64,000 nt of DNA from Marsupella aquatica (taxonomy: Eukaryota > Plantae > Marchantiophyta), in the NCBI GenBank assembly GCA_973895155.1, contig OZ316891.1:25543899-25607898 (forward strand), in the 5' to 3' direction. Both the position numbers and the translations under genes were made by a program. Shown here one piece after another: positions 6,824 to 64,000 of this stretch (within the stretch, counting starts at the first letter, position 1; the number at the start of each line of letters is the position of its first letter). The notes under the pieces were generated by a model that was given only the letters and a program-made list of their open reading frames with translations, ran no database searches and had not been told where the DNA came from.

Positions 6824-6981
6824 TGTTGTAAGGTATAGAACAACTGATCCTTCATTCCCTTCCATATCCTTACATATAGGCTATCGAATAGCCAGGCGGT
6901 TAGACAGTTAATGTGGTCTAACCTGAGTAGGCGTAAACCTAGTTAACCTCATGTATGGTCTGGTTAACTCGGGTTACAACA
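6824..6981 (-). repeat. 5' LTR of copia element 1
   Basis: Direct repeat of 714-871, adjacent to the PBS. Confidence 0.97.
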
Positions 6982-18924: not shown

Positions 18925-18936
18925 GTGCTGATAACG
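18925..18936 (-). other. Primer-binding site of copia 2 (half-tRNA-Ile type)
   Basis: CGTTATCAGCAC immediately inside the 5' LTR; same core as copia 1. Confidence 0.8.
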
Positions 18937-19100
18937 TGTTGTGTGACAATGGAGAGACTTGCAACTCGCTGTTGTGTTCCATTATGGGTGTGACTTATAT
19001 AGTCACCATAGGGTTACATGTTGGGGTTGGTGTTAACCCATGTTACCCCTTCAGGATAGGGTTAGGGGTTAACCATGGTCTAGAGTAAATGGTTACAACA
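18937..19100 (-). repeat. 5' LTR of copia element 2
   Basis: Direct repeat of 13318-13481. Confidence 0.97.
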
Positions 19101-20312: not shown

Positions 20313-21419
20313 ATGGCCTTGCAAGACATTACAAACAAATGGGGCAAGTCGTATGAGATACGGTTTGCAGTGGATCCAAAATATGCGCCCCTCATCAAAA
20401 GAGGGGTCAATGTTGACTTGCAAACACAGAAATTTGATTTCCCCCAAAAAAGGGTTGAGGGGGCTACTAACATAGACCTGTGGATAAATGGGGCTATATA
20501 CCCTAAAGATCCAAGAACAAATGCACCACCACCCTTTACAACCTTGAAGGAGCTTGTAGTTTATATTTGTGAAGGAGAAAATGGATTCTATGGATATGCC
20601 CATAGCCTATCAAAAACAAATATGACTATTACTAAGCAATACAAGGCAAACATCAAAAACATAGAAAGTGGCAGGGCTTTTTTTATGCAAGTGAGTCGTG
20701 AGCTGAGGGTGGAGAACCTTCAGTTGCTACAAAAAATACAGTCATTGCAATCTGACCATGATCAAATAGCAAGCTTACAACAATCAGTTTTGGCATGTAC
20801 AACATCATTGCAAAACAAAGAGAAAGAGCTTGTTTCTTTGAGAACAAAATATGATAAATTGTTGCGAGAAGGGCATGTTCGCAAAAGAAAAGACTTGTCA
20901 GATCTGAGTCAAACAGGTGGGCATGCAAAAAGATTAAGACGTCCAGTCCGAACTCTACTACAAGCAAGGACTTCAAAGGAGGTTCAAATGGATAATGCAA
21001 TATGTGGGGGGAAACATTGTGTTTGTGGAGATGTTGAAGCACAAAGACAGAATGCTATGTTACTTGCAAAGATGTTGACAAAAGAGGAGAAGGAGTACAT
21101 GGTGCAACAACCTAGCATGACCACAACAATTGTGAAGGCCACAAACAGTATCTTGACTGAAGTTGGAGATCCTATCCAGCCAACTAGTATGTTGGCAGTG
21201 TGTGATCAAACTGGTGTTTCTCAGAAAGGTTTTTCTGCTATCCGTAAAACTTTGAAAAATGGCTTCAAGTTTGTGCATCCACTGTTGAAACTTGCTGCTA
21301 TTCCTAATTCCTCTCAAGTGTCTAAGTTGAGGGTTGAATATAATGCAAACCTTGTTCACTTCATTGGTGAGTACAAAAGCTTGCATATGGAGCTTCCAGA
21401 TGCCCCAAAGGCGAGATAG
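20313..21419 (+). CDS. N-terminal part of a putative RAG1/Transib-like DDE transposase, probably truncated
   Basis: 368-aa ORF with a coiled coil. IQPTSMLAVCDQTGVSQKGFSAIRKTLK...IPNSSQVSKLR resembles the RAG1 segment [28 protein letters not shown] that precedes the catalytic core. The ORF ends 2 bp before the MULE TIR. Confidence 0.4.
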   Translation: MALQDITNKWGKSYEIRFAVDPKYAPLIKRGVNVDLQTQKFDFPQKRVEGATNIDLWINGAIYPKDPRTNAPPPFTTLKELVVYICEGENGFYGYAHSLSKTNMTITKQYKANIKNIESGRAFFMQVSRELRVENLQLLQKIQSLQSDHDQIASLQQSVLACTTSLQNKEKELVSLRTKYDKLLREGHVRKRKDLSDLSQTGGHAKRLRRPVRTLLQARTSKEVQMDNAICGGKHCVCGDVEAQRQNAMLLAKMLTKEEKEYMVQQPSMTTTIVKATNSILTEVGDPIQPTSMLAVCDQTGVSQKGFSAIRKTLKNGFKFVHPLLKLAAIPNSSQVSKLRVEYNANLVHFIGEYKSLHMELPDAPKAR

Positions 21420-39373: not shown

Positions 39374-40069
39374 GTGCCCGCACAACAGCAACCATCCAAA
39401 TTTTTGGCGATAGTGAAGAAGGCATTGGACCCCAAGGCGGACCAAAAAGAGGTCATAGTGACAATCGAGGACGTGCACTTGACGAGGGCACATTTAAAAT
39501 GCTTGAGGCCAAAAAAATGGATCACTTGCGACGTCATCAATGCTTACATTGCTTTACTGGAACAAAGAGCACAAACCCTTCATAAACCCAAGGCCATGTT
39601 ATTGCCAACACATTTTTACCAAGTGATGACATCTCCGGAATATAACTTCAACGCAGCGTTGGCATATTGGCGGGGCATTCAAATGTGGGAGCACGAGTAC
39701 ATTTTAATCCTCGTCTACTGGCCAAAACACTGGGTACTAGTTGTGGTTGATACTGCCTTGCGGCAACTGCATTTACTTGATCCGCTTGTGCCCGAAGCAC
39801 ATGATGGCACAAAAGTGTTCAAAGTAGCTCAGTTTCTTTCGGACCTCTCCATCTTGCGGGGTCGTACCTTGTTATGTCCATTAGAATGGCCACGCATTTA
39901 CCGAGATAACATTCCAGGTCAAGGGGATGATTACAATTGTGGTGTATATATCATTAACTACATGGAGCGTATTTCTGGAGGCGGCGTACTGAACTTTGAC
40001 CCTGCACTTATAGACATCATGCGGCAAAAGATTGTTGTGGACCTTGTCTGCCAGACAATTACCCTGTAG
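39374..40069 (+). CDS. Ulp1/C48 SUMO-protease domain
   Basis: WITCDVINAYI, PTHFY, KHWVLVVVD, LDPL and GQGDDYNCGVYI give an intact His-Asp-Cys triad and the oxyanion Gln. Confidence 0.92.
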   Translation: MPAQQQPSKFLAIVKKALDPKADQKEVIVTIEDVHLTRAHLKCLRPKKWITCDVINAYIALLEQRAQTLHKPKAMLLPTHFYQVMTSPEYNFNAALAYWRGIQMWEHEYILILVYWPKHWVLVVVDTALRQLHLLDPLVPEAHDGTKVFKVAQFLSDLSILRGRTLLCPLEWPRIYRDNIPGQGDDYNCGVYIINYMERISGGGVLNFDPALIDIMRQKIVVDLVCQTITL

Positions 40070-42468: not shown

Positions 42469-42892
42469 AGAGTTGGCCACAAAAGATGTAATTAGTAGTG
42501 AGCTATATGATTGGATTTAAATAACTGTCTATACTTCTGAACTTCTCATCAGAGTCCTTCATTTGCCTACCCTTTTTTTATGCGCAAAAATTTGCCTTCT
42601 CCAATGTCTTTGAGAATCATTGATATCCTTTTCCTTCCTCTTGTTTATCTGCAACAGCTTTTAAGTACATTGCCACTAAAGATCTTTGGATTTACAATCC
42701 TGCCACTTTTTTTTGTGTTTACAAAAATGCCACGGTTTCCGTATATAGCTCCCCTAGTTACCTTGGTAAACTTATCGTCCATATACAAAACCGTGGCATT
42801 TTTATAAATACAAAAAAAAACAGTGGCAGTATTGTCAATTAGCATATCTTTAGTGGCAAACTACTTAAAAGCTGTTATCTGCAAATAACACT

Positions 42893-42983
42893 TCAAGTAC
42901 AGATTACAATCTAAACTAGATGCTATTAAAACATTTTGTGGAACCATGGAAGGCTAAAACAACAGTTCAAGTACAGATTAGAA
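42893..42983. repeat. 74-bp tandem repeat, left part, interrupted by the CACTA
   Basis: tcaagtacagatta at 42893 and 42967; the register resumes exactly at 61521-61650. Confidence 0.9.
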
Positions 42984-44139
42984 CACTAGAAGGAAATTGG
43001 AATTTTATCACTACCTAATTCACTTGTTTCAGAGTAATAACGGGCAATTTATAACTCAATGGTTTGAGTGCACTAATGTTAGTCGCTTTAGACAACTAGT
43101 GGTATTGAGCATAAAGTCATTTATAACAAGAACTCAAAACGTATGAGTGTTTTATGTCACCGTCACTTTCAAACCCAACCGTCTTAAATAACTAGAAAAA
43201 TAATAGTTGTTTAAATTTTGCCCAAAACAACTACTATTGTGAAATTTTTTAACAAATGATACCTAGACATGTGGCGATCTCCACAATCCTTGGGGATGAC
43301 ATTTGTCAAAAGTCAATTGTGGTCAATGCACCTTGAACCTTAAACAACTTATTTCATGACTAGCATTCAAGTATAAATTATATAGCCCTTGCCAATATAT
43401 GACTAGATTTTGAGTGTGAAAGATACTTTGTGTCACACATTTAATACTAGTTATATGACTAGAATTGAAGTCATAACCAAAACACCTTTTAGACTTGTCC
43501 TATCACTAAATTTGAAGTGATAACATGAAATATTTTGATATACTTACTACATGTTATATAACTAAGTTTGATGTAGTAAAGATATATTATTTTGCAATTT
43601 AAGTACTTGTTATATATCTCAAATTGAAGTAGTAATTGTAGAGCTTTTGTTATTTGTTATATGACCCTATCTATAGAAGTATCATTCAATACATTATTAC
43701 TTGCTATATGACTACATCTTAAATATTATAGATTGCTATTCTACAACTTTAAAATGGGTGACAAACATCATATCAATGACAACTATAGTCATAGTAGTAT
43801 GACCATAGTCTAGTATCACTGCAATTATAATGATTTGGGTGTATTATAGAACTTGAATGATAGTACATTGAAGTGTATTGATCAGTAGATTTGGGTGTAT
43901 TATAGAACTTGAATGAAAGTACATTGGAGTGTATTGATCACTAGATTTAGAGTCATTAGTTTTAGAGTTCTAAACCCTAAAATGTAAGCACTCACAATAA
44001 CAAAAATCTCACATGATTGTCTCATATACAAAATCAGCAAACTCATATAAATCATCATTTCAAACATCAACAAAATTCCAGAGTAATCCACATCTGGGAA
44101 TCCAAAAACTGAGAGTTATAGTTGCACAATAGTATCCAT

Positions 44140-47100
44140 GCTACCTATAGGAACCCATATACTTCTTCAATCACATGGATTCTCTATTGCAAGCACTACT
44201 CAATTATCAAATCCTACTTCCTCATTAACTTCAAATGAGTGCCCCTTCACATGTTTGAGGGCTACCAAGCCTTCTGGGTGCTTTTCTTGGAGAGGTGCAT
44301 CTCCATTCAAAATAGAAACAGCTTTGACAATCAAGAAGCCAATAGGAACTGGGTTGTCATAATATCGATCAACTCCACATACTCCATCAATTTTTGCAAT
44401 AGCAATCACCTGCTGATCCACCGGTGACTTCAATTTCACCATGTCTCCTACTTTAAACTGTTTTGCACACATCAACAAGATAACACAGTCATTTCATTAG
44501 ACTCATACAATCATTTCATTAGGCTTGTTAATGACAAGTTACAGCAAATAAATGAATAAGACATGTATTGAAAGCAATAATTCGCTTTTGCTCGCCTTCA
44601 AGACAAAGGTGAAGGTACCAACTTTGGAAACTCTGCAAGCATGGCTTCTTCAGATGACTTTGTACAAACAGCTTCAGGTGTCACAACTTCAGTTATCTTC
44701 TGCAAAACAGATTAGGGTGAGACAACTTACATAAGCATGCCCTACTAGGTTCACATTACAAATTCATGGGATAATGAACACATTAATAATCACCACTTAC
44801 TTTGCCTGCTTGATCATGCTGCGCAGGCGAACTGTATACCACCTCTGTTTCTTCATTGATCTCTTGTTTCACAATCACTGGGTCGACAACATTGTATTCC
44901 GCATCAGCATTGACATCAATCCCCTGATCATCTTCAACTGCCCATAAACATTTCAAGACATTAGAAAACATTCACTAATCCAAGTCATGCATGCATTACA
45001 CTACTTTAATTGTCCTCTATAAAGAACATACCTTCTTTGGTCAAGTCCACCAAAAAGTCTAGTTTCACAGCTGAAGTACTACGGCCTGAATGACTTTTCA
45101 GGCCCGATTGACTTTTCATAACTGAACTCATTTGTGAGGGCATTGAAGACGGTCCTGGCCCAACTGGGACAGTTCTGATTTCTTCCACATCTTCACTATG
45201 GTTCTGTTTTGCCAAAACTGTTACTATTTTGTCAAACCCAACACTCATCCCAGTACTTATCCCAATATTTATTGCATCCACAATTTTAGTCAACATAAGA
45301 TAACCATCGTCTTCCATCGTAGCCTTGGAAATTGGTGTCTACAACCATTGACCAATCATACAAAAGTTAGTGGATATCACATAGCTTTCACTGGCAATTT
45401 GGAAATCACAAATTGGGCTTGTGAACTATACTCACAATTGACTTTCTACCTCTCCGATGAGATGGTGTGGCCTGTCCTATGACAGATCTCACACTTGATG
45501 GATTAATTCTATCATCTCTGGAACGTAGCTCTGACAGAGGTGGACTTTCCCCTATTTTTCTCTTCTGAACAATGAAACCAAATAAAACATATCAGAATGA
45601 AACTTCTTGCTTCTTTGCATACCAATTGCTAAAACAGAGGAAGACACATGTTGTAAGCCTACTTGTTGTTTACAAACATTCATAATAACTATAAATGAAT
45701 CTTGTATACTTACAAAGTCAGACTCCTTCCCACGGTAGCCACCTCGTCCAACCCTTGATGGGTTAATGACTTTAGATCTTGCATACTTCATCTTGTCAAT
45801 GCTAGACATCCCTTCTGGAGACAGCCACCACTCACACAATGCCTTCCAATGTTCAGGTTTCATATTCTCAGGGGGCTTCTTGTCCAGGCGTCTCCCACCT
45901 TCCTGAAAATGTTTGTGGAGTCTTGCTCGCTGTGCTTTCATTACTGGTGAACAATGAGACCTAAACTTCTTCATTGACAGAGTCCCCTATAGATAGTCCC
46001 AATCATTCTCCAACACAGCATAAATATGAAGAAGAACCCCTGAGTCTTGCTTCTTAATCTCACGGATAGAAGGATTCAGTTTACCCATACACACAGCACG
46101 AAGATCATCTCCCCAACGTGCCCAATATGGATCACTAGGATCAACATCATTGTTCCAAATCTGCACACAATGCATCATAAGAAAACAATAACAGAGGACA
46201 AACAATAAATCACAAACATGATCTTTCACAAGCAACATACAGTGATTGCAGCTTTCTTCATGCCCAACTTGCGACGCACGCTTGTGTTCTCTTCCCATTG
46301 CTTCTTTGCAGCACGAGATGATTATCGTACATATGTCTATTTTGATCTTTCTGTGACAATTCCATCATCCGGATCACGAGTAGATGCTTTTGGCAAGGGT
46401 GTCACTACCACAACCAACCAAAGAGATCCTGTTAGCAAGTCAAACATTAATGTAACTAGTGACAGTCAATCTGCAATTATGAGAATCTCTGAACTCGGGA
46501 ATCACTTGGCAAGTCAAAAACAAGCTCATGGCAAATGAGGTAATGAATAATTACTTACATAAACTCACTTCTTTTGTCCTAGGATCCATATAATATTTAG
46601 CTCTTGACTGTCGGGGAGCCTGTGGATGACACTGTGCACATTCAAATAATTAGTAACACTAGCACCACATCAAAATATACAGAAATTGGACAATTAATGC
46701 AATTAGCTTCAATTGAAGTGAGTCTTCTCCTACCTTACGTGGCTCTTCAACACCATCTGATTCAACGCCATCACTTAAACCTGCCCCATAGTTTGTGTCA
46801 GCTGACTGTTCAGACCCATCACTCCCACTGTTGTCACTCTCCATGATTTTCTCCAAGTGCCTGCCAAGTAATTGTGAACTCCTACGCTTTGCTTTAGATG
46901 GCTGATTCTGTTCAGTCTTCTTTGACAACTTAGATAGACGCTTATATGCACCTTGCCTCTCCCTATAAACTGCAATCACCCTGACAATGTCATGAGTGTG
47001 AACCATTAGTAATAAAGTCAAGGCATAAATTGAAAACTATATAGGGATAGAGTACATACTTTAAATCACTTGCAGTAGTTCCTGCGAACTGGTCAAGTAT

Positions 47101-47181
47101 AGCTTTGTTGGCTGCTATGTTCCTATTCCTCTGTGCCTCATAGGCATTCTCAAAACCTTTCACCCCAGACCAATCATGCAT
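44140..47181 (-). pseudogene. Multi-exon TnpA-like (ORF2) gene of the CACTA
   Basis: KPPENMKPEHWKALCEWWLSPEG...ARSKVINPSRVGRGGY is Transposase_24-like; C-terminal FKVGDMVKLKS...AIAKI beta domain; YEAQRNRNIAANK at the N-terminus. Exon boundaries are approximate. Confidence 0.7.
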
Positions 47182-47255
47182 TTCAATTCAAAACTGCATA
47201 AAAAAACACTATCACCAAAGAGCAATCAGTACTTCCTGCCCCAAGAGGCACATTC

Positions 47256-50200
47256 TCACTCTTCATCTGAATCTTCTTCATCTTCCCAGACATCATCATC
47301 ATCACTATCACTTCTTGTCAACACTGCCATCTCCTGAAAAACTACAATTTCTCCTTCATCCAAGGACACTCGTCTGTTAGCTGCTGCAACAAGCTCAGCC
47401 TCAACAACCTCATGATGATCCACAAGATCATTAAACTCAAGGTCATTTATACCCTCAACAACTCGTCGAGACCTCCCTTCCTTATGGAGAACATGTCTCC
47501 AAGAGGCCCTGGCTGTTTGGGTAGAAGAAAACCTGCTCAATTTGACTGGGCAAGACATAATCTAATTTCTCAGCTGAGGGATAAGGCATATTAAAATTAG
47601 CAAGCCATAGGCCAGTCTCATCATGTTTCATTGATGGATTAGACCTCTCCTCTCCCCACTTAGACCGCACCCATTTTGCCTTCAAGATTATGGCTGGTTC
47701 AGAATGTAACAGAGGTCCATAGTCAAGCACAAGTATCTGTGTTAGAACCCCCACATATGTAAGCTTGGCCAAATTCACCCCAATTTCTTCCCTGATCTGC
47801 TCATGGAAAGTTGTGGCCACCCCTGAATCGAATGTAGCATATCCTTGACAATCAGTGTCCCTGAGAGTGGACATCTCACGCCATTCACCATTCCTATCTT
47901 TGCAGCGCATCACTCTGTAATGGTTCCCAAAGCCTTCATTGAATTGTAAGACAAAGCCTTCTATCTTGGTGGAAAAGAAATTGCAGTCAACAACAACTTG
48001 CTTGACAACTTGTCCTCATTGTCATCCAGGTTAGCCTTGTGTATTGTATCCCTGAACCACACTCCAAAAGGAATGGAAGCAAATTCAGCAGGACAGGCCA
48101 TTGCTTGACGTCTGCCTCGTCGTCGTTCTGCATTATTCTGTCTTACAACAACTTCCCTTTCTATCCTTCGCTCCTCCTCTTCTGACTCATACAACCTTCC
48201 AAGCAAGCAAAGAACAATGTCAGATATCATAAAAGAAATACTGTCATATTGTGAAAACGCATTTAGAACTACATTACTGAACACTGAGACAGCCATAAAC
48301 AAAATGATGTAGTGATCATGTACCTGAGCCATGGTGCAACCTGTACATGGTTCTGTAGGTAATAGGTGTGGGCAGCATCTCGGTCAGCAACAGTTAGAGA
48401 CAGTTTACTTGAGGCCCCTTCCAGGACCACACCTTTAAACCCTGCCTCTTCTTCAGAGTCCCAGACCTGCTGCCGAGTTACTTGGCACTGAACCATATAC
48501 TCTGTGAGAAATCCCAATGCCTCCTCTAGGATATAACCCTCAGCCATAGATGCCTCTGGTTGTGCCCTGTTTCTTACAAAACCCTTTAGGTTTTTCAGGT
48601 ATCTCTCGATTGGATACATCCACCGTTGTGATACAGGTCCACATATATCTAGCTCTTCCACTATATGCACCATCAAATGTGCCATGACATCAAAAAACAA
48701 AGCTGGAAAATGCATTTCCAGAGCACACAAAGTATGTGCCACATCTGTCATCAGTTCATCCTTAGTGCTAGGGTCCCAGACCTTACAGCAAATTTTACGC
48801 CACACACGGCACACACTAATGATAGCCATTTGAGGTCCTGTTGCCATCAAGTCCTTCAATGCCAAGGGAAGTATCTGCTGCATCAGGCAATGGTAGTCAT
48901 GAGACTTGAGACCAGCCAACTTATTGCTAGCTCTCACACACTTTGCCAATGAGCTACCAAAATCTGTGGGAACTTTCAAGTTCTTCAAAGTGCCCAGAAA
49001 CTTCTCCAGCTCTGGTTTGCTCATCACATAGGGCGCCTTGGGCTTCACAAAGTGATCCTTCTTATTGTTTGGATGAGGCTTCATCCATAGCTGCTCGTGA
49101 ATGCCTTCAGCCTCCATATCATTCCGCACAGCAGTGGTATCCTTCTTCCCAGAAGTAGTGTGAATCAAATTCTGAGCAATGTTCTTCTCTGTGTGCATGG
49201 GATCCAGCACATGGTTGATCAGAAGTTTCTGCATGCAAACAACAAAAAGCAAATCAGTCCAACTGCAAATTGACATGTGTGTACAATGCTGGTTGCAATA
49301 TCTTCAAGTAAAAAACGTGAATGCAAGTGTGATTTTACTCACTGACTAGTATGGCAGCTTTGCAAGACCTTGTGTCCTCTTCACCCCATGAAGCTTCAAA
49401 GGACAGTTCTTGCTTCCTTGTTTGGCCCCAGGTGTTTTCAAGTACTCTTCCACCTCAGCAGCAAAGGCTAATTTTTGCTCACAAGTCATCCTTGGGGGAG
49501 GCCCCCGTGGCTTGCACTCCCCATCAAATTTTGCTGCAAACTTTGGGAGCGGTACTTATGGTTCTCCTCCAACCACCTTCTACTCCCCAGAAATACATTC
49601 TTGGATAGAGCAGCAGACCTTCTGCAGCTCACATTGGGACCACACACAATGCATCCATGATATCCTTTTGTGACTTGACCCGATATGAGACCCAAAGCTG
49701 GATAGTCATTCACTGTCCACAATAGAATGGCCCGCAGATTGAACCACTTATTCAGGCCAGGCCTATCAAGTGAATCAAAGCATGGAACTCCCTCCCAGAG
49801 CTCCAAAAGCTCCTCCAACAATGGAGCCATGTAAATGTCAATGTTGCGGTCAGTCATTGAATCAGGCCCAGGGATCAGCAAAGATAACATAATGAAGAAC
49901 TTCTTGGTGGACAACCAAGGGGGAAAATTGTAATTCAACAATACCACAGGCCACGTAGAATGCTTGAGGTTGTTTTCCCCAAAGGGATTCACACCATCCA
50001 GAGCCAATCCAAGGTGTACATTGCGAGGCTCTGCTTCAAATGTTGGATCAATTGTTGTATCAATCTCCTTCCATGCCCTAGAATCTGCAACATGCCGGAC
50101 CTTTCCATCTGTGCTTTTACTGTCCTTATGCCATGTCATCAACTCTGAAATAGCCTTGCACTTGTACATTCGTTTCAACCTGGGTATGAGGGGGAAATGT

Positions 50201-51012
50201 CGAAGGACTTTCACAGGTTGCTTTGATTGCCCAACCTGCTTATACCTAGGCTTTTTGCATAGTGGACACTCATCGCAATCAGCATGCTCCTTTCTGAATA
50301 GGACACATCCATCCTCACAAGCATGAATTTTGACATAATCCAAGCCAGCATGACTGATTAGCTTCTTGCATGCATACAGGTTTTTAGGCAGCAGATTCTT
50401 AGCAGGCATCAACTGTTTCCCCATCAACGAAAGCAGTTCATCAACTCCAGAGTTGGTGAAACCATGATTATGGCATGTGTTTAGAAATGTCAACACAAAT
50501 GACAATTGGGAAGTAGTGGACCCCTCATACAAAGGGGCACACGCCTCTTCAAATGCTTGCATAATCTTCTCCTCTGCCTGTTGGTCCCAAATCTGAGTTG
50601 CTTCTCCAGATGTACTGTCCGCCTCCAGAAGATCATCCATGTTGAAGAGACCATCTTCACTTTCCTACAGAGTGGGCTCCTTTGCAGTGGTTTCTTGGAC
50701 AGGTTCACTGGCATTAGCAGTTTCACTTGGTATTGCCAGGTCCTCTAGTATCCCAGGGATATCTATGCCACAGTCCATATCATTGGCAAGTTCCTCTGCA
50801 CATCTTGCATTGTCCACAGGGCCCTCAAATGCACCATCCCCCTCCATGCAGCGTGCATTCCACTCATCATCAGAAGAGTCACAGTCCTCTCCCCACCAAT
50901 ACCTTTGCAATGGGTGGCGAGAATTCTGAATGAGGTGCTTTTTGACCGTCCCTAGACTCACACGATTACCCCTACAGTTGCAAATGTAGCAAGGACATTT
51001 TATCTTTGTCAT
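47256..51012 (-). pseudogene. tnpD: CACTA transposase (TnpD), spliced and frameshifted
   Basis: CPCYIC...HL transposase-associated motif; LALDGVNPF; VNDYPAL; LDPMHTEKN; GLKSHDYH; WMYPIERY; a DUF4216-like tail (PSQIEQVFFY). Confidence 0.93.
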
Positions 51013-51383
51013 CCCAGCAGCTCTACAAGCTGCAGTCTATTGACGCCATAACTTATCATCCCTCCTATTCAAGTCATCTTGACTACCACAAAAGTTCCTC
51101 AACATTATTTCAGCCGATTCAAGTCAATCCAATCAACGTCTTCCACTCAATTTGCCAAAATGCAGAGGACCCACGTACCTTGCAACCTCTGCAAGCTCTC
51201 TGGATACTGCAATCCTCCACTCTAATGGTACCAGCACTGGACTCCACAACTCTAGGCTACTCTGCACGTACATCCATGACCATATCAGAATACAATCACC
51301 TATAGTCATAGAAACCCACTCCACTAGAGTGATATCATATCTTTGAACATATTGTCAGATCAGTACAAATACCATTCCTGTGC

Positions 51384-51890
51384 TCAATGATAGTCAACCC
51401 TCAAGTACTCAGGCAAGTACATTAAGTCATCTATGTCTAACCCAAGATCATGCCACGGTGGTCTACAATCTGTGCCTACAAGTAGTGGTTTCAATGCCTT
51501 CCATTGTGGGGACATGGCTACCAAGTCCCTCCATTGGGTACTAATGAGTCGATATTGGCATATGTCTTGAGCTGATGACATGGAAAGAACCCTAGGCCAT
51601 ATATTTGTGACTACTATATCATATGGCAAAACATGTAGCAAACTACTACATTCCTCATCATCCTCTTCACACCCTGCTTCACACTCATCTGCTGAAAAGT
51701 AAACCTCCCCCTCCCCCTCATCTGCCCTACCATACTGTACAACAGATTCAAGGTTGACAATGATTCTGCCACGTGAGGGTACACATTGCCGGATTACCAA
51801 ACCAACCAGCCAACCCACCACAACATACATCCATGTAGCCACCCGTATGAGGGGTCTACATATGGTGTGGCAGTCTGGAAAAAATGACAT
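51384..51890 (-). CDS. F-box-like protein with a hydrophobic N-terminal segment (CACTA cargo)
   Basis: LLHVLPYDIVVTNIWPRVL...ICQYRLISTQWRDLV; N-terminal WMYVVVGWLVGLVI. Confidence 0.6.
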   Translation of the reverse strand: MSFFPDCHTICRPLIRVATWMYVVVGWLVGLVIRQCVPSRGRIIVNLESVVQYGRADEGEGEVYFSADECEAGCEEDDEECSSLLHVLPYDIVVTNIWPRVLSMSSAQDICQYRLISTQWRDLVAMSPQWKALKPLLVGTDCRPPWHDLGLDIDDLMYLPEYLRVDYH

Positions 51891-52502
51891 ACCGAGTGTA
51901 GTGTTTCACCTCCAAAGTACATTTACTGGTGAGAACCTACAACATGGACACGACAATAAGCTCAGCTCCCTCATAATCTATACTTGCCACTTCGTAGTTG
52001 TCTGTGTTCATTCAGACAATTCACAGTCTGAGTTCATACTGTGAATTTTTATTTGCAGAAAGGTTTTACATTTTACATTTCATGTATTTAGGATGCTTCT
52101 TTCAAATCTGAAACTCTATTTCTACCCACACACAACAGGTTGAAGAAAATACCCCATTGACAATGCCCCATCCATGACACCCAATAGCCAAGACAATCGT
52201 ATAAACACTGGGTCCAAACAATTCAATCACATCCACAGTATTGACATCCATAAACATCAATTGGAATGGTCCTCATACTGGTATACAAAATAATTACCAA
52301 ATAAATAAATAGAGTTTGAGTACTTAAGATGTTTTAGGAAGCCTTAGTCAATTAAACCCGGAGCACTGTCTCCATGCTCGTGCTAACCATTCACACAGTT
52401 CACAAAATGTGTGATTATGACAAAACGTCATTGTTCCATTAACTAAGTGTATCAATGTCTGTAGTAGTATTGATCTATTTGAACCAAAATGGACCACATG
52501 AA

Positions 52503-53151
52503 TCAAAGCCAGGAGATGTGATCATGAGGCGCAGTGCCTAGAGCAGGGTCAATAGGATGGTCAAGACAGTAAATCATCCAACGTCCTTGGTCATTTGCAG
52601 TATGATGCCAGGGCACTCTGTTTGGTGCAAAACCTTGACGTTGACTCTCGGCTAGGCAAGTACGATGCCAAGTTTTGGGACATCTCAAACACTGCACGGC
52701 CTCTGCCAGATGAGGGTCACGATGGTCCTGATGGCATGCAACACATGTATGGATAGGGCAAGACTCCACATCAAGTGGCAAGCATCCATGACAATAAAAA
52801 TGAACACAGTATGGCTGGGGGCACTGCCTGGCTGCAGTAGAGACAACACCACACTGAAAACACCTGTTTGTCTTATCCTTATACTCTGGACAATACCAAG
52901 GATCATCATCCTTGCCTGCTGCAATAAATACGGCAGGGCACCTGCCAACAGCCTCACCAACTTTGGAAACATGGTGGAAGTGCTGATGGCAAGCCCCACA
53001 TGGCCAGATCTCCATGCCAGTCACAAATGCCACAAAGTTGGGGACTACATTGACGTTTCTCAATGTCTGACCACAATTCAATCATCAACACATCTTCCTC
53101 CTTTCTTGTTCGAGTATCATTCTTTCTGGCTTTATGCTTGGTCCTAGCCAT
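52503..53151 (-). pseudogene. Histone H3-tail-like N-terminus + EDM2/NSD-type PHD-finger cluster (one frameshift near 53005)
   Basis: MARTKHKARKN...CGICDWHGDL, then after the frameshift WPCGACHQHFH...WYCP...CFQCG...CVHFYC...CPIHTCVAC...CLRCPKTWHRTCL...IYCLDHPIDPALGTAPHDHI. This matches the plant EDM2 PHD module and its IYCLxHxIDxxLGTPxRDHI tail. Confidence 0.8.
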
Positions 53152-53784
53152 TATGACCACTGGACAATGAACAAGAAAACTTGAAGAGTTATTAAACTGT
53201 TACATTGGATGTCATAAAACACGTACTACCACATGCATATTGCAATCCAATGTGGGGCCAGAATACAGAGGACTCACCAACTGTACTCAACCAAGAGGAA
53301 GGCAATGAAATTGGGAGATTGTCTTGATCGATGTCAAATGTAGATCTCAATCTCCTCTCACGTCACAAGATGTAAAAACAAGGATTCATAATCTGCAACA
53401 ACACAAATGTGACACAAAAGAGTCATTGGACTACATACAGGCATCTGATGTTTAATTTCAAACTCCTTTTGTAACTAAAGGTTGCCTAATACTCATTTCA
53501 GAGTACTATTCTAATTCTGCAGTGGTAGGTTGGATTGCCATTGAACTCAGAAAAATATACCATCAAATCATTTTGTGTTGGTAAAATGAGATGAAGCATG
53601 TGGCAAACAAACTTACTGGAAATGAATTTCAGTTTATATACAGGGATGAATCCCTGAACGTTTTAAAAAACAAGCTCAGACAGGCTGAAGACTTTCCCAA
53701 TGCCAACAATTGGTCATTCTATTTACCCAAAGCAAAGTTATTTATTGCTATCTTGCGAGCACATCCATGAGAGTACAGGTGCAT

Positions 53785-53786
<2 letters not shown>

Positions 53787-53828
<42 letters not shown>
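53787..53828. repeat. (AG)21 microsatellite
   Basis: Perfect dinucleotide run. Confidence 0.98.
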
Positions 53829-53829
<1 letters not shown>

Positions 53830-56569
53830 ACATAGGATGAGCAGACAAAGAGAAACTATGAAGGAAGTGAGAGAGAGCTGCCAGAAAAGTGAGATTGCAA
53901 ATTGAGCAATTATGAGAGAGCAAAACACACGATTTAGCAAAGGATGTTTGTGTGCACATCTACGAATAGTTTGTGTCCAGGGCATTGCACTCCACAGAGA
54001 CGTTTGAACCAAAGAGCTTAGAAGCAATTGCCTACCATGCAGCAAACTTATAAACCAACTTCCCAGTGTTGTTACTGGCATGCAGTAAAGTCAACCTCAA
54101 GTTTTTTGACGCTTCTATCAATTCAGGAAAGTGGACACCGACAGCTCAATGTAGTTTTCAAGCGAATGGCTTCTTGTCTATAGACTCAAAATTTGTCTGT
54201 AGTTTAATTGTCAACCCGGGACGTGTAGAGCAAGACTACAAGACTCCATCCTGGACGTTCATTCCCGGTTTCAATGGGCATAAGGCACAAACTAGTTTGT
54301 CTTGTTAATATATTAAACTGGCCATAGTTAGAAACCAATATTCCTTCACATCCACATTTTAGCCCAAACCATGATCGGCCAAGAAGACTTGATCTGGCCA
54401 GATCTCTGTGTACAGGGCAATGAAGTAGAGCTCTCGATGAAACTGCCAATCAATCATAATCAGTTTGTCTCTATTTCAACTCTGAACCAGTAGACAGTCT
54501 CTATTAAATAGTTAACCCGGGACATGGAGAGGAAGACTGCACTCAAATTACCCAACGCAAAGACCAGTATGCTGAATAAGTAAACACCAACTCTGCACTC
54601 GGAGATTGCTCACAGCAATAGCACTTGGTTAGTTAGGGAAACTCACCTCGGTCCTTCTGATGTACTCAAGTGCCACAGAGCTAGATCACTTAGCTCCATT
54701 GTTGAAGGCTTAACTCGGCAACTTGATTGGAGGCAGCTTGTTGGCTTGACTCGGCAGCTTGATCGGAAGTAGCTTAAAGGGTTAACTCAACACCTTCATC
54801 AGAGGCAACACGGAAGTGTGAGATAGTAACAACAATGCACGGAATCACTTTGTAACAGACAACTGAAAACAAAAACATATTACCATACAAATCAATAGTA
54901 GATAGGTATAATGCACATTGCACAGAATAGAAGATCTAGCAATGGATCTGCTCAGAACAATTGCAAATGACATCCTCCACTCATTTCATTTGATGAGGAT
55001 GCAATCTGTTCCTGCTAACTCTTTTGCTAAATCTGTCTGGACTCAGCGTTACATGATTGACAACTAAGAATGAAATAACTAAGCAGTGAATAGATCAAAG
55101 GATTATGTTTAAAGAGAATCATGACAGATCTGCTGGTCATGCAACCTAATCAATTCTCTGGACCCATTCAAGCATATCACAACAACAGCAGATGGAGGAC
55201 AGGGATGCCAGCAGAGGGACGGAGGACAGGGCCAACAATAGTGAGTAGCAATGAACTCCAGCTCTACAAAACTTAATCACAGAACTTACTTGGTGAAGCT
55301 CCACTATTGAAAGTTGATAACTCGATTTCAATCTCAATGCAAAGGAAAGGAAAGCAGCTCAATTGGTGTGCAATCACAGCAGGCGCACTACAATGCACAG
55401 GTCACCCTAGGACTACCGTAAAGATGAATAATGAAACAAAGGTAGAGGAGCTAGACCCCGAGAGAAATGTATGCCACTACGAGAAAGCAACCTCCCTAGA
55501 TAGAATATCGCTTCACCAGCTCAGGGAGGAAGAGTGACACCTCGTGACAGTCTCTCCTACTACAGCAAGGACTGCTCAGCCCTGCATACTTCTACCGGGA
55601 CTTCTACAGCACTCTCGGTCTCCATGAGTGACCACTACTACAACCCAAAACTCCTTGCTTATAACATTGTGCACATTCGGGAAGCCATTGCACAGAACAA
55701 CCAAGACATTCAAACAACTAATATCAGCCGTGGACTTGTAGTAGAGAGCAAGTAGCTCGGTAGACAAGAGAAAACAAGGCGCAACTAAAGCTGGCCATGG
55801 AAAAGGAGACCCAACAGTTGTTTCAGGGAAGGATAGACCCAATACTTGGTTCAGGAAAGCTAAAAGAAATACAGAGCATGGCCAGGAAGTGAAAGAAGCA
55901 CAAAAGCTTCACTAACCTTGAAACAAAGGAATGGCAAGTATGCTGAGCCTCCTTTGACTACTTTTGCAAGCTCCTTCAAGCTGCAGTCCACCTTATGCAA
56001 CAGCAGCGCTTGCAGTAGCATAAGCCTCACTTGAATTGCTTGACAGCAACTCGGCCTCGATCAGCTTGACGGCAGTTCCAAGAGTAGACTTCCCGATGTA
56101 GTGTAGGAGCTAAAAGTCAAACAAGGGAGACCAATTCAGGCCATCTGCTTGGGCACTCACCCGCATCTCACGCGGATAAATGAACATTTTATTTCCCCGT
56201 CTCCACAATAGACATGACGGACTCTGCAATGAGTCCACGTACCCGTAATGATGTCCCACGATCAACACAAGTGACACGACTCACACTATTCACTCCACTG
56301 CCAATTAATTCTGCAGGGATACAGTCCTACTTCACACCAGCAACAATCATTTCTAAAAATCTTAGTGCAGAGTCTTAAGGAGAGAGCAAAGCAGGAGAAT
56401 AGTTCTCCAAAGTCCCCCCCCCCAACGCACACCTTCAAACGCTAACAAGTCACAGACTCTAGCAAAGAGTTTTCCAAGCAGAATCAAAAACAAACCGGGA
56501 AACAAACGCACCAATAAAAGCCAAGAAAAGCCAAGCAAAGCCAGGCGACTGACCTCCCAACGAGCACTC

Positions 56570-56635
56570 ACAACTCTAACAACTCAAGTCCAACTCTAAC
56601 AGTCCAACTCTAACAGTCCAACTCTAACAAGTCCA
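56570..56635. repeat. ~14-bp tandem repeat
   Basis: caactctaacagtc, about 4 copies. Confidence 0.85.
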
Positions 56636-58489
56636 GCGCGCATCGTGGGAGGTCGGCCACTTGGAAGCCTTACCATGATATTCCTTGAACCTACAATAGC
56701 ATTTGAGCTCACTGCATTTGAGCACCAGCAAGAGCTACCCTAAACGCCTCCCAAACTGCTGGTCGCATCTCAGTTGCCCAAAGCAGCAGCAGCCCAGCCA
56801 AAAGTCAAACTTAAAGGCACAAATTCCACATTTCCTGAAAGCAATACTCCCGTTAGTCTATAGATGTGCGCACATTCAGCCTATGTTAGAGATCAAAACC
56901 TGACATTGCCCGATTAGCCTCGACGTTTCCAGTGGGGAAATGCACTCCTCTGTTTGATCTCCGACAGGCTACAGCTGAATCGCAGCTCCACACTCAATTG
57001 CTCCGCACTCAATCACAGTTTGTGGCTCTGCAACTCTTGCCACTCCTGCACTCCGCACTCGCGCACTCCCACAACTCTGTGCTCCCGCAGCTTCGCACTC
57101 CCGTAGCTCCGTCGCGCAGCTCTGCACTCCACTTCAGAAAAAATCCATGAGCCTTGATCGCAGCACTAACTCCAGCGCACCATGCCCACATTCACTCCCG
57201 CAGCTTTGCACTCCACAAACTCAATCCATGAGGTGCAATTGCAGCCCTAAACTCCACAGCTCTGGAGGGAAAAAAAGCAGTGCAACCTTGCTAAACCCCT
57301 CCGCTCTCTTCTCCTAAACCCTTTGTGCTAGAGAGTAACCACAACATTCAGCATTTCACCTTGATACTTTGTCGGAAAAGTGGAACGCAACTCTTCCTCC
57401 AACGTAAGGCGGGTGCAAATAGCCGTTTGGCGCGAACCCGTACTCTAGACTTACTCTGACATGGAAGCGCCTAGGGTGATCTCAGCCATCGGATGAAGGG
57501 AGATTTCCCTGAGCGATCTCAATCATCAACATTGGGGAATTTGATGTTAACCCAAGGCCTCCGTTCCCTCTACTTAATTAACTGTCTGCATTTACACCCC
57601 AAGCCCCCAGGCCATCCCATCCCATCCCATCCATCCCTTATGTTATAAAGCCAACCCACTCACCCCCCAGGTTTTTTTGTAATGTAGTTTCACCCCAACG
57701 TTGCCCCTTGTCTAACCCCTACAAATAAGTGCTAAGTGGTGACTACCTGGCTCTTTCAAAGTAAAGCAAAAAATGAAGAACTTCCAATATGCCACCAACA
57801 ATGTTACCTAAGCAGGTGGTATAATTACTTGGGTAGTAAACATTTAATTTCTCGCAACGCTTTTTTAAGTGAGAAATGACATTATCCATGTGAGTCCTAA
57901 TGCGGGTCCTAATGCCAACCATTTATCCTAAACCACATTTTCATTTCTAGACTACCCTATGTGAATCACTTTTTGTCTATTGCCAATTTTAATACCTTAC
58001 TTACTCCTTGAAAGTGTGTAAATATATCATACAAAGCTTGAGAAGTAATGCTAGTGGTGCTACAAAATAATGCATTTTCTATGACACTCCCTTGAGAGAT
58101 ACGCTCAGTGTCCAGAAACCCCAAGCTTCTATGTACCCTATTTACACCGTGTTCCGGCCAGGATGTTGTTTTAAATTTTCTCTATGTTTTAATTACCCTT
58201 GGCACCATTCACTAAACTTCTTTGGCAATTTAATGGCTCGAACTTCGGAAAATCACCACATTCCAAGTGCTTTTGCCAGTCCCCTCGGAACCCACTACCT
58301 GGTGGCAAGTGGTTTAAGCAATGTATTACTCAAATGTTGGTGACATAGTTGCTGCACTTTGGTGAGAGTCCGATACTACATCACTTGTAGTGGTATTTAC
58401 AAGCTCTCCATCCCTTCCTTGATTGTAAGTTATTTGTAAATTACAACATTTATGTCATTTATCACTACTGACTAGGTGATGGTAGTAGC

Positions 58490-60475
58490 GACCACCACTT
58501 CATGAGAAGTTGTTTAGAAGGATGCATGATGTACCACCCCAGCCTGAGTGACAATGTTAGTCTCTAGAAATGAGGGCTTCAAAGCACATTGTTTTGAGTG
58601 GTTTCCGGAGTGACAAACTTACAAAGGATAATAAGAAGTGGACGGGGAAGTGGATCCACCTTGCAACAATTCTCGGAGGGCCACAATTGAAGGAGGAGGG
58701 TTGGGCCCGCCGCCATAACAATTTCTCCGTATTAGCCCCCCCATGGTGAAGACGTGGGACATCCCCATCACGTGTGCCAACTAGTTATAGCAACGACAAT
58801 GAGGTTGTGACGCATAAAATACCAAGGTGGAGAGATTTGAGACACACAAGTGGTGGAACATCATGAACTCCACACAAATCACTCCAAGACTCTACGGAAT
58901 TACAAATATGGAGCTTATGTGATGTGACACACAATTCACTCATTTTAGCACTAGTTCATGGTTTCGGATCACACTAAAGTGTGTTGCATCACTCAAATAC
59001 GGGTGCAATTTGTAGTCGCCAAAAGGCGAGGGCCTCAAAGGACCTTTTTCCGAGTCAATTGGGCGTGTACATATAAATACACTTCATTGCAAGTGTTTGC
59101 ACCCAATTTACTTCTCAACTCAAATAAAGGTGGTATCTTAAGTTGCATTTGCCCTAAACCCTAAAACCACCTCATTTGTAGTGGTTTGGGAACAACAATC
59201 ACCCTTGGACTACCACTTCATGACAAGTTGTTTCAAGGGATGCATGATGTACCACCCCAGCTTGAGTGATAGTGTTAGTTACTAGAAATGAGGGCTTTGA
59301 AGAACATAGTTTTTAGTGATTTGGGGAGTGACAAACCTACAATGGATAATAAGAAGTGGATCCACCTTGCCGCAATTCTCGGAGGGCCGCGATTAAAGGA
59401 GGAGGTTTGGGTCCGCCGCCATAAAAATTCCTCCATGTTAGCCCCCCCATGATGAGGCTGTGGGACACCCCCATCACGTGTGCCAACTAGTTATAGCAAC
59501 GACAATGAGGTTGTGACGCATAAAATGCCAAGGTGGAGAAATTTGAGACACACAAGTGATGGAACATCATGAACTCCACACAAATCACTCCAAGACTCTA
59601 CGGAATTACAAATATGGAGCTTATGTGATGCGACACACAATTCACTCCTTTTAGCACTAGTTCATGGTTTTGGATCACACTAAAGTGTGTTGCATCACTC
59701 AAATACGGGTGCAATTTGTAGTTGCCAAAAGGCGAGGGCCTCAAAGGACCTTTTTCCGAGTCAATTGGGCGTGTACATATAAATACACTTCATTGCAAGT
59801 GTTTGCACCCAATTTACTTCTCAACTCAAATAAAGGTGGTATCTTAAGTTGCATTTGCCCTAAACCCTAAAACCACCTCATTTGTAGTGGTTTTCCCCCA
59901 ATCACCCTAGGACTACCACTTCATGAGAAGTGGTTTAGAGGGATGCGTTATGTACCACCCCAGCTTGAGTGATAGTGTTAGTTGCTAGAAATGACGGCTT
60001 TGAAGAACATGGTTTTTAGTGATTTGGGGAGTAACAAACTTACAATGGATAATGAGAAGTGGATCCACCTTGCCGCAATTTTGGGAGGGCCACGATTAAA
60101 GGAGGAGGCTTGGGCCCGCCGCCACCACAATTCCTCCGAGTTAGCCCCCCCATGGTGAAGCCATGGGACACCCCCATCATGTGTGCCAACTAGTTATAGC
60201 AATGACAATGAGGTTGTGATTCAGAAATTGCCAAGGTGGAGAGATTTGAGGCACCCAAGTGATGGAACATCATGAACTCCACACAAATCACTCCAAGACT
60301 CTACGGAATTACAAATATGGGGCTTATGTGATGCATCCACACAATTCACTCCTTTTAGCACTAGTTCATGGCAAGTGGTCACACTAAAGTGTGTTGCATC
60401 ACTCAAATACGGGTGCAATTTGTAGTCGCCAAAAGGCGAGGGCCTGAAAGGACCTTTTTCCGAGTCAATTGGGCA
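58490..60475. repeat. ~705-720-bp tandem triplication in the CACTA subterminal region
   Basis: accacttcatga...gtaccacccc at about 58494, 59212 and 59915; near-identical ORFs 58958-59164 and 59664-59870 lie 706 bp apart. Confidence 0.95.
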
Positions 60476-61520
60476 CCTGTTGTGTAGTTGTTTGGGTACA
60501 ATTTGTAAAAATAAATTGTTTGTCGCTATAATTCCGGTGGCATGCATATCGTGACTGAAAATGTGTGTTGATAATGACATCATTGGGAGAGGTTTGGGAC
60601 ATCACAAGATAATCTGTTCAATTTTCAGTCATTTGTCAAAATTGTTTTGACACTCTAATGTTGGTGGCATTTGTAGTGGCAAAATGTATTTAAAGAATGA
60701 CATTATTCATAGTGATTTCTGAGAATGGAAAATGATCTACTTTATTTCAAGTCATTTGCAAGGTCCTGCATTGACACTCTACTCTTAGTGGCATTTGGAG
60801 TCACTAAAATGTGCGAAGACAATGACATTCTTTAGAGTGATTTTGGACTAAGGAGGATGTGGCACTTGGTTTGAAGTTGCATCAAATAATATTTATTGGA
60901 CTCTAATATTAGTGGTATTTGTAATCAGACAATTTGTGATAATAATGACTTTATTTAAAGAAATTTTATACATTGACAATTATTTCACTCAATCTTAAGT
61001 TGTTTGTAAGAATTTCCTTGTCACTAAAATATTTTAAGTGATTTTACCAAAATTCATTTGTGACTCCACTATTGGTGATATTTATAGTAACAAAATGTGT
61101 GCTCACAAATGACATTATTTCAAGTAATTAAAATCACTTGGAAAAGATTCACTTGGTTGGGAGTTGATTGAAAAAGCACCTTTACCATTCAAATATTGGT
61201 GGTACTTGTATTTGTAGTGGTTTCGGCCAGTAGTAAAATCTTAGTTGAAAATAGAGTGTTAAACATCAACGGTGTAGTGGACGGTGGATTGTAGTGATTT
61301 GTAAATTTGTGTAATATACAACTCTAATTCAAGTGATCTAAGTTTTAGTGGCAAAAAAAAGAGTTGTAATCAGTGATTAAGGTAACATAGTTCTAAGTAG
61401 AGTAATAAAATGCAGATTATTACAACTTATTAAGAAAACAGTGGTTGGCACCATGTATGAGTTATTTAGGCAAAGTAGTTGCAGGGCCTGTAGTAGTAAA
61501 ACACAAGTTTTCTTCTAGTG

Positions 61521-61650
61521 GAATCTAAAGTAGATGCTATTAAAACATTAAGTGGAACCATGGAAGGCTAGAACAACAGCTCAAGTACAGATTAGAATCT
61601 AAAGTAGATGCTATTAAAACATTTAGTGGAACCATGCAAGGCTAAAACCC
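61521..61650. repeat. 74-bp tandem repeat, right part
   Basis: gaatctaaagtagatgctattaaaacatt...gtggaaccatg, 2 copies, in register with 42893-42983. Confidence 0.9.
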
Positions 61651-61679
61651 CGACTAAAACTGGTTGGGATGCTTGATAC

Positions 61680-62896
61680 CTTTTCCCAATGCCCAGGCTT
61701 GGTTGGGTTTACAATGCCAAAAACCCAATTTCCATAGTCCTCAGAGTTAATGTAGAACCCCACTTCTTCACGAATATCACGTAAGCCCCAATTTTTGCCA
61801 ACGTCCAAATTGATACATGTTCCATCCAAAAGTTCAACCTCAAGACTCATCATTTCCACCGCATCTGACTGGTCCTTCACAAGTCGTTCACAAACATATC
61901 CGAAAGTAGTGTACAACATTTGCCGACCAACATGGTATCTAAAAGTGATAGACAATTGAAGAACTTGACATTTAATGATATCACTTGCAGCCTCTCTTTT
62001 AACATCCCAACCTGGATCCATGAGAGATGCAAGTAGATCTTCTGAGACTGGTTTAAAAACATAAAATGTCTTGGTTTGTCGCATTCCAATGTCCACTTGG
62101 ACATGAAATAGATCGACCATGATGTGGAATGGCATGAACCAGTTAATTCTACAAACACGACCACCTGTGCTGGGTTTCATTGCCATATGAAAGTCAGAAA
62201 ACAGTCTAGCACAAAAGGACTCAGTAGTACTCATGTCGGGAATTGGCCATGATGGGTCATCAAATGAAGGAAGTGGTATTGGTATAAGTTTCCCAAACTT
62301 TCCTTTTCCCAAAGGTGGTACATAAGAAGCATCATAAAATAAAATGCCTGATTCTAGCAACTCCTTATGGGTTCGGGTTCCTCGCATTGCTTCACCAATA
62401 ACTCCATGTACCACCACAACCAAATCTAATATAGAATTTGGGTCCTGCCAATCTTCATATTTTGTGGGGTGGAGATCTGTTAGTAGCAAAAAAACAATAA
62501 TATCATTAGTAAATATTTGATGCCTACTAATAACTAATGGCAGTTTGCTTAGATAGTTTTATTGCACTGAAAGTAACTTATATATAGGGATCAGAAATTA
62601 CACTTACAATTCACCCGGTTGTTGGGTACACCATGTTGACAACGTGACTCCAACTGCAACTGCCGGGGACAATATGCATGTGCAACCAATATAGATTGTA
62701 ACACTACTGAATTTGTGGCAAACTTGAACTTCTTTACTTGAGCTATAAAATGTTGTTTAGCCCATGGTCCTCTCTTTGGTGGATTTAAAGTAATCCAAGA
62801 GTCGATCTCAATTTTTTTTGGAATCCAAACATGGTCGCTATCCCCTTTAATGTGGATGAGCATTGATTGGATCTCTGAACGAGGCCGCTTTGCCAT
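61680..62896 (-). CDS. Spliced gene for a BAH-like domain protein with a possible C-terminal ubiquitin-like fold; the downstream intron is interrupted by the CACTA
   Basis: Exon 62896-62608 (phase-1 donor gtaagt) joins exon 62476-61680 in frame: HFIAQVKKF...VAHAYCPRQL...NYLHPTKYEDWQDPNSILDLVVV...FYDASY. LEVELLDGTCINLDVGKNWGLRDIREEV follows. Confidence 0.5.
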
Positions 62897-64000
62897 CGTA
62901 GACTCCCTCGCTCCGATGTCTCACAATTCTCTACCCAGATGATCTGCTTCCTTCCGGCTGGACTCTAGAAAGTCGTTCGTCATGAATGGAGCTCCAACGG
63001 CTGGACTCTGGAAAATTGTCCATTATGAATGGAGAGCTCCCATGTCACAAGGGATGAACTGCGATTGAGTAAGGAAGGAGAAGCTTGCACAACGGCATGC
63101 AACAAAGCTCAATACTAATGATTGCACAAGGACATGCGATGAAGCTCAATTCTATCACTGACTGTGCTTTCGATTGGGCATAAAGGAACTTTGATAATTA
63201 ACTTTGAAAATAGAATCCATGACAAGGGAACGGAACAGGGATTGATTGAACGACACACTGGGATCAAAGCAAGTCTGGGCAATAATCCGTCGTAAATGTT
63301 GTCGTTTCGGTACAGTAGGAACAGATCAACACCAAGTCGAGCTTGGAAAATGATTTAACTCAAAAACGCAGGCCCTGCGGTAGCCACGAGGGACGCAGAC
63401 TTAGCGGTAGCCATGAGGGATGCAGACCCTAAATTTTCTGAACCGGAGGTCAAAATAGGAAGCTGCGACGTAATGTTGACAAAAATTGCAATAGGGTGGG
63501 GGCAGAATGGAACGGAACCGTAGCTCAAGTCTGGGTGGGGGCAGAACGGAACCGCAGCTCGACACAAGCAAACTGACAAAGAAACGAGTATGAAAAATGA
63601 ACAAACAGTGCTGCCAGCATCCGCCTTTGCTCAGAGACCCTCAAGACAACCGGTTCCACAGAATGATTGTGAGCCTGAAGTATGTACTGTCATGGGGGGT
63701 TTTCACACACCGTCTCGTCCATGAAGCTCGATAGGTTGACGGATACGACATGAGTAATCAAGAGCCGGCTCAGGATGTCTAGATTCAGAAGCGTAAAGAG
63801 CAGGTATGAGCTATGAAAGTCATCTCATTTCTAATCTTCTTCATCCTGAAACAACCAAAGAAGTAGCCCACCAATTCGAGCAGCTCATTCAATGATTAGC
63901 AGTGAAACTGCAACACATACAGAGGAAGCTAAATGGAAATCCGAGTTGCAATTTACTCGATTGAGCTTCGACAATCGGCAGCAAATTGCAGGTTTCAGTA

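Follow-up and report, generated by a model that had tools for sequence, protein, structure and literature searches.

A PHD-finger gene with a histone H3-like N-terminal tail in a CACTA transposon of Marsupella aquatica

Why would a plant DNA transposon carry a gene whose product begins like histone H3 and continues into a cluster of PHD zinc fingers? The question is raised by a 64,000-nucleotide stretch of Marsupella aquatica (contig OZ316891.1, positions 25,543,899 to 25,607,898), hereafter the window, in which the minus strand encodes MARTKHKARKN from 53151 and, in another frame, a Cys/His-rich PHD cluster that runs to a stop at 52503. An initial annotation of these letters described an H3-like start and a PHD cluster lying across a frame break, and both descriptions hold: the decamer after the Met shares seven of 10 residues with H3 (A1, R2, T3, K4, A7, R8, and K9), and the cluster does sit in a different frame, ending at 52503. 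It had also reported that the C-terminal domains of EDM2 are lacking, and a stop codon indeed follows directly after the PHD module, both in the window copy and in intact relatives.

The description of the gene as CACTA-borne is borne out by its surroundings. A full-length CACTA (En/Spm) element of 18,537 bp occupies 42984..61520 on the minus strand; its ends read CACTAGAAG, its termini at 42984 and 61520 are inverted repeats beginning CACTA (12 of 13 terminal bases complementary), and a 3-bp target-site duplication, GAA, lies on both flanks (42981..42983 on the left, 61521..61523 on the right). The insertion site is a tandem repeat unit of about 74 bp, both flanks being copies of repeat family D17. 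Following the minus strand, one meets the subterminal tandem repeats at the 5' end of the element (58490..60474; three units of about 703–718 bp, repeat families D5, D11, and D12), the PHD gene, a weakly matching F-box-like ORF (51387..51905; Pfam F-box E 0.0013, below cut-off), a TNP2/TnpD-type transposase distributed over several frames (47256..51036; Pfam Transposase_21 E 4e-66 and DUF4218 E 8e-34), and a weak Ptta/En-Spm (TnpA-like) exon (45552..45986; Transposase_24 E 0.033), all four of the latter on the minus strand. The F-box-like ORF may be a candidate second accessory gene. Short CCCTAAA runs, which resemble plant telomere repeats, occur within the subterminal units of about 703 bp.

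The remainder of the window holds other mobile sequences. Two young Ty1/copia elements lie at 714–6981 and 13317–19100, with terminal repeat stretches that are 99% and 100% identical. The region from about 20000 to 40100 is rich in repeats and contains several long ORFs with no Pfam match at E 0.01 (for example 20274–21419, 27059–28309, and 34537–35724), an Ulp1 protease at 39374–40069 (E 2e-14), and pieces that look F-box-like and SWIM-like by eye; it is possibly one large uncharacterised DNA transposon. Between 23163 and 38882, several tandem arrays with periods of 26, 40, 132, and 169 bp share a motif around GAGGGTCTCCGAGA, present in either orientation, which suggests a putative binding site of the elements there. 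Just left of the CACTA element, a MITE-like 62-nt inverted repeat (84% complementary) with an inner 32-nt pair is found at 42653–42876, and just beyond the right end are two minus-strand open frames of 311 aa (61623–62558) and 109 aa (62591–62920), neither with a Pfam match.

The PHD accessory gene (52503..53151, minus strand) is intronless, and its intact relatives are mostly 213–225 aa long, counted from the tail Met. It begins with the H3-like N-terminal tail (Met plus 10 residues, 53119..53151), for which the family core is A-R-x-K-x-K-[A/S]; this is followed by a variable linker with approximate bounds 53080..53118, unconserved in both length and sequence, and by three NSD/EDM2-type zinc-finger units with a conserved C-terminal segment (52506..53052), all on the minus strand. 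An AG that follows a pyrimidine tract on the same strand (53160..53161), 8 nt before the ATG, is a candidate splice acceptor as judged from the sequence, and from it we infer a possible intron in the 5' UTR.

The frame break had been put down to a 2-bp deletion at gat c|tgg cca tgt. The effect on the frame does equal that of a two-base loss, but five bases are actually missing, about 10 bases further on (52996..52997), and the loss removes the Cys codon of the third PHD1 ligand together with the next Asp codon. The five additional bases are present behind 52996 in contigs of sequencing runs X2, X3, X4, X5, and X6, which rules out the two-base deletion at the site first proposed; run X1 has no contig across the lesion. 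When the intact relative P0002 is used as a tblastn query, residues 1–51 are joined to residues 54–217 across the lesion. Single contigs in X3, X4, and X5 span 52980–53200 with four other letters changed in each, the three listed ones being synonymous, and no differences in the tail codons are listed among the run contigs at a 1% share. The tail is also covered by X1 record 6 and X6 record 32, each with only three differences, matching the number listed outside the tail. Because the spanning contigs of X3, X4, and X5 combine with these unchanged tail codons, close copies do have the H3-like start and the fingers in one frame, and the in-frame fusion that the initial annotation had hoped to find in intact copies is present in the contigs of these three runs. 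The window copy itself is a pseudogene, with a frameshift and a lost zinc-binding Cys. Its eighth PHD1 ligand is Tyr, and the 21 listed majority differences that were classified, taken from 40 of 99 difference rows, comprise 11 non-synonymous ones, including the PHD1 Cys loss, against 10 synonymous.

What kind of fingers are these? Judged by their zinc ligands and nearest relatives, they form a tandem atypical NSD/EDM2-type cluster. Pfam types the cluster as NSD (PF23004 E 1.3e-4 and PF22908 E 1.5e-3, both below curated cut-offs), and Cys or His fills 14 of the 22 alignment columns that are invariant across 13 rows. PHD1 is C4HC3, with 11 residues separating its His from the next Cys and a near-invariant Asp directly after the third ligand. 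In the second unit, ligand five is Cys and the final ligand is His (His136 in P0002 numbering, invariant in the 13 rows), and the third ends Cys-x-x-His (Cys197–His200) in most rows. EDM2 appears to have a PHD1 insertion and a C-terminal segment similar to those of the window-type gene, in keeping with the match of the cluster's tail to EDM2 noted in the initial annotation, and would be a candidate donor of the module. A His as the last finger ligand (C4HC2H) is given as a mark of EDM2/NSD1-type fingers in PMC3776765.

Structural comparison leads to the same relatives. The closest PDB sequences are the PHD clusters of NSD2 and NSD3 (profile E 8e-10 to 2e-8, about 25% identity), and the closest fold is the NSD2 PHDv-C5HCH tandem, with a middling Z of 6.7 and an rmsd of 2.6 over 75 residues. 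Every Foldseek match lay above E 0.001, with none at or below it. In the ESM Atlas, the nearest cluster is a plant-dominated Streptophyta PHD_NSD cluster (score 0.92), which, like the domains of the element, agrees with a plant host, and among 177,635 PDB sequences no solved EDM2 PHD structure was found. PHD1 and the helix preceding it are acidic in all 14 rows, with 7–17 acidic versus 2–5 basic residues. EDM2 is described as having 2.5 atypical PHD repeats in addition to PGR, ELP, and proline-rich regions (PMC7529245), and its PHD module is reported to bind H3K9me2 (PMC9910501; PMC7529245; also PMC4980392); by analogy, the window-type module may bind histones as well.

Relatives were found as 15 small stand-alone proteins and three DNA loci (L001–L003), which are 41–75% identical and unnamed. 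The protein searches gave two relatives among 11 candidates, 14 among 2310 (lengths 90–392), and one further cluster member. The metagenome locus scan with A3 gave the three loci among 290 pattern matches, the scan with A2 gave no relative in 599 stretches, and the viral and prokaryote genome scans gave none in 51 and none in one, respectively. A search of longer proteins for EDM2 or fused forms returned none among 2475 candidates of 533–2000 aa, a result of little weight.

With these relatives in hand, one can ask whether the tail is more than a chance resemblance. The 7/10 identity of the window tail was not equalled once in 20,000 shuffles of its first 20 residues, and the pattern [A/S]-R-x-K occurs 0–3 residues after a Met in 15 of the 17 sequences examined versus four of the 2725 Mets in the six frames of the window; P0008 lacks a tail of this kind, and the P0011 sequence begins only at PHD1. 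As R2 and K4 are the anchor pattern, their 15/15 counts are circular; for P0003, P0007, and P0009, an in-frame Met beside the motif was taken instead of the called start, and P0015 is a near-duplicate of P0007. The unanchored columns are nonetheless strongly kept at A1 (14/15), K6 (14/15), and A/S7 (15/15). Other H3 residues are rare, namely T3 (1/15), R8 (2/15), and K9 (7/15); position 3 is usually Pro (7/15) or aromatic and position 6 is Lys, whereas H3 has Thr at both. In a 14-row set from which the near-duplicates P0015 and L001 were dropped, mean pairwise identity is 0.56 for the tail heptamer, 0.10 for the linker, and 0.46 for the PHD positions other than Cys and His, and the tail lies 16–29 residues from PHD1. 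With no anchor used, likeness to H3 exceeds that of the sequence's own first-20-residue shuffles at p<0.05 in 11 of 16 sequences, which are related and thus non-independent, and the column-majority motif compares with H3 at p=0.0016 (post hoc, in one register).

The tail opens with Met-Ala in seven of 15 cases and carries extra residues ahead of the Ala/Ser in the other eight. As the start type (Met-Ala versus a two-residue extension) switches at least three times on the tree while A-R-x-K is retained, the conserved Ala is not mere start-codon context. The Arg codon varies between AGG and CGT among three DNA copies. A 33-residue N-terminal piece matched no PDB sequence at E 10, and a 48-residue piece matched no Pfam family. 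Taken at the level of the alignment, the tail motif A-R-x-K-x-K-[A/S] is conserved about as strongly as the PHD body, as expected of a short motif under selection. PHD fingers usually read A1, R2, and K4 of H3, and the conserved register of A1, R2, K4, and A/S7 makes a mimic of the H3 tip plausible.

We therefore favor a reading in two parts. Intact copies are probably a selected accessory chromatin reader of the transposon, the protein being a likely chromatin-binding helper for the CACTA element. The whole statement, in which the H3-like tail additionally serves as the ligand of an H3-reading pocket, is held tentatively, with a probability of roughly 0.4. Such a protein would be nuclear, and its fingers would bind nucleosomal H3 tails in the methylated chromatin of the element, by analogy with EDM2; its tail would occupy a pocket that reads H3, in the simplest case that of its own acidic PHD1. 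The tethered tail might then be a latch displaced by a real H3 tail bearing the preferred marks, or might dock onto a host reader. Having none of the other domains of EDM2, the protein could act as a competitor or adaptor that aids transcription or mobilisation of the element despite silencing. Canonical PHD pockets read a free amino end, and the extension in eight of 15 tails would hide that end from such a pocket. Two AlphaFold2 models show folded fingers (mean pLDDT 71 and 73) and an undocked, disordered tail (pLDDT <50 for residues 1–33 and 1–27), which, with alignments of just 13 and 16 rows, is weak evidence against a latch.

In the same selected CACTA accessory protein, the tail could instead be a basic arm that holds on to DNA or to the surface of the nucleosome, or that serves nuclear import, for instance as a non-classical nuclear localization signal, with the likeness to H3 a by-product of a Lys-rich start beginning Met-Ala-Arg. 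We regard this as a serious competitor, though a tentative one. K6 is the most conserved non-anchor residue and is not found in H3, while T3, Q5, T6, and S10 are missing from all or nearly all tails; the N-terminal extension on about half of the tails and the disorder in the models also suit an arm of this kind, and the locus was chosen from a large scan for H3 likeness, which inflates the match. A classical monopartite nuclear localization signal within the decamer is ruled out, however, as its core pattern K-[KR]-x-[KR] occurs in none of the 15. A tail kept for its charge would not need so strict a register, in which Ala1 and Ala/Ser7 are conserved, and the adjoining linker, though likewise basic in several members, is not conserved.

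The initial annotation had gone further and suggested a decoy that could titrate writers or readers of H3K4/H3K9. In a version limited, if need be, to the window lineage, which has come closer to H3 or CENH3, the tail would work in trans as a substrate or decoy for such proteins (ATX, SUVH/KYP). Here, one should distinguish the family from the window lineage. A sink for H3K9 writers across the whole family is unlikely given the counts for T3, R8, and K9, and the ARTK..ARK start, although unchanged in close copies, is confined in full to the window lineage among the 15 tails. In a tree of the finger region alone, the window nests in a 99/96 clade whose other four members have neither T3 nor R8, and an early-branching position of its lineage is rejected (p-AU 0.00036); because of this, the near-exact match, which is specific to the lineage, is most likely derived. 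As the ancestral state of the family, the 7/10 match is rejected.

What speaks for the decoy is that the seven identities persist in close copies from three coded organisms, and that the likeness exceeds the family profile: when columns are drawn from the 13 other tails, at least seven identities arise at P ~0.0004 per lineage, or ~0.005 for any of 14, under a model that under-rates new residues at variable columns and ignores the selection of the locus by a scan for H3 likeness. MARTKH, the first six residues of the window lineage's protein, is moreover the conserved start of plant CENH3 according to PMC9842635, a match absent from the 14 other tails. On the other side, R8 and K9 occur together only in this lineage, nested among four tails without T3 and R8, one base change suffices to turn Pro into Thr, and the close copies are too alike to show selection on the tail codons. 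We consider the decoy unlikely, but the window lineage may have converged toward H3 or CENH3. A further proposal, that the protein promotes full-length processing of the transcript, finds no direct support in a protein that has none of the other domains of EDM2.

Does the gene belong to the transposon at all? One could suppose that it is mainly a host family of short EDM2/NSD-like PHD proteins, a copy of which was recently picked up by the CACTA element through Pack-type capture. The transposon context is shown at one locus, Pack-CACTA capture is described (PMC13317346), and the gene has the F-box-like ORF as its neighbor, an arrangement seen in elements that acquire host fragments. L001–L003 lie on contigs of 1.1–1.9 kb, too short to reach a transposase, and contain no recognised one; residence in a transposon is thus shown for the window copy and not for the distant relatives. 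(In L002, an open frame with a Cys/His stretch at 633–1094, minus strand, converges on the PHD gene relative and has no Pfam match.) Against a recent capture, all three loci are damaged by a stop, a deletion, or a frameshift, the two that span the whole gene are intronless, and the runs hold many slightly differing contigs of the gene (365 in X2). The observed/expected CpG ratio is similarly low in the PHD gene (0.26) and the transposase (0.22), versus 0.68 in the neighboring copia element and the 20–40 kb region, a shared depletion that suggests long methylated residence in the element. We rate recent capture as less likely still than the decoy.

The family is under purifying selection: of nine pairwise codon comparisons drawn from four DNA copies, five show saturated dS and the other four give a dN/dS of 0.11–0.38, which runs counter to the neutral evolution of a captured fragment that the initial annotation had allowed for. 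A last reading denies the gene any function and sees in it a captured fragment in neutral decay, or EDM2 exons joined by accident to the beginning of an H3 gene. It accords with the decay of the window copy yet is very improbable and largely refuted, as zinc ligands are kept in intact ORFs across the family, in-frame copies exist, dN/dS is low or dS saturated, and the tail keeps its register while the linker next to it varies freely.

The selected accessory reader with an H3-like tail therefore remains our preferred reading. In its fullest form, a DNA transposon family would have kept, over a time sufficient for synonymous sites to saturate, a miniature EDM2-type heterochromatin reader tethered to its own false H3 tail, which gates the reader or baits host H3 readers and so defeats silencing, and the window lineage would have been refined toward a near-exact H3/CENH3 start; this form we consider doubtful. 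If true, the transposon would encode a histone mimic; viruses are known to use this trick, but we found no transposon example in the literature searched. A tail that works in this way would extend histone mimicry from viruses to transposons and provide a naturally occurring ligand with which to map H3 recognition by EDM2-type fingers. On intronic heterochromatin, the host AAE complex relies on the same kind of reader module. How CACTA elements persist in the methylated genomes of plants is not as well explained as it is for Mutator elements with VANC, and the PHD gene is a concrete candidate for a counter-silencing or targeting factor, small enough for direct expression and assay.

Comparison with known systems shows what is shared and what is not. 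With Arabidopsis EDM2 and EDM2-like (AAE complex), the window-type protein shares the atypical PHD repeat common with NSD proteins and its His as last ligand (PMC3776765), here His136 and His200. It differs in being a stand-alone protein of about 220 aa without the PGR, the ELP methyltransferase-like, and the proline-rich regions given for EDM2 (PMC7529245), in having Cys rather than His as the fifth ligand of the second finger, and in its N-terminal A-R-x-K tail and transposon location. NSD1/2/3 are the best relatives of the fingers with solved structures, by sequence and by fold, but the window-type protein has no SET or PWWP domains and is only about 25% identical.

Some of the experimentally named histone mimics come from the host. 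In the PHF2-VRK1 structure, the N-terminus of VRK1 is bound by PHF2 as a histone mimic. The auto-methylation motifs of SetDB1 have been described as histone mimics, and viral ones as short linear motifs resembling the H3 tail (PMC11738798). These are backed by binding or modification data, whereas the window tail is a predicted mimic; unlike them, it is part of the same protein as its reader module and is encoded by a DNA transposon. The first six residues of the window lineage are identical to those of plant CENH3 (PMC9842635), from which the protein differs in having no histone fold and in a match missing from the 14 other tails.

Among mobile elements, VANC of VANDAL and the PHDs in Chlamydomonas Gypsy/CR1-like elements offer the nearest parallels, each being a selected accessory gene likely to act on chromatin. 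VANC is described as the anti-silencing factor of VANDAL elements (PMC10398659), and PHD accessory domains in transposable elements have been reported (10.1101/2022.06.16.496473). VANC, however, is a sequence-specific DNA-binding factor of Mutator-like elements, and the Chlamydomonas PHDs sit in retroelement polyproteins, whereas here a free-standing NSD/EDM2-type module is found in a CACTA element with an H3-like tail. In the full-text, mostly open-access literature that we searched, no CACTA-borne EDM2/NSD-type PHD gene or transposon histone mimic was found. Neither "PHD" nor "histone" occurs in the main text of an atlas of Arabidopsis TE products (PMC13547354) or of a gene-capture review (PMC13317346). 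TE PHD domains, VANC, and viral mimics were thus known already; what appears new, as read from the sequence, is a free-standing NSD/EDM2-type PHD gene with an H3-like tail in a CACTA element.
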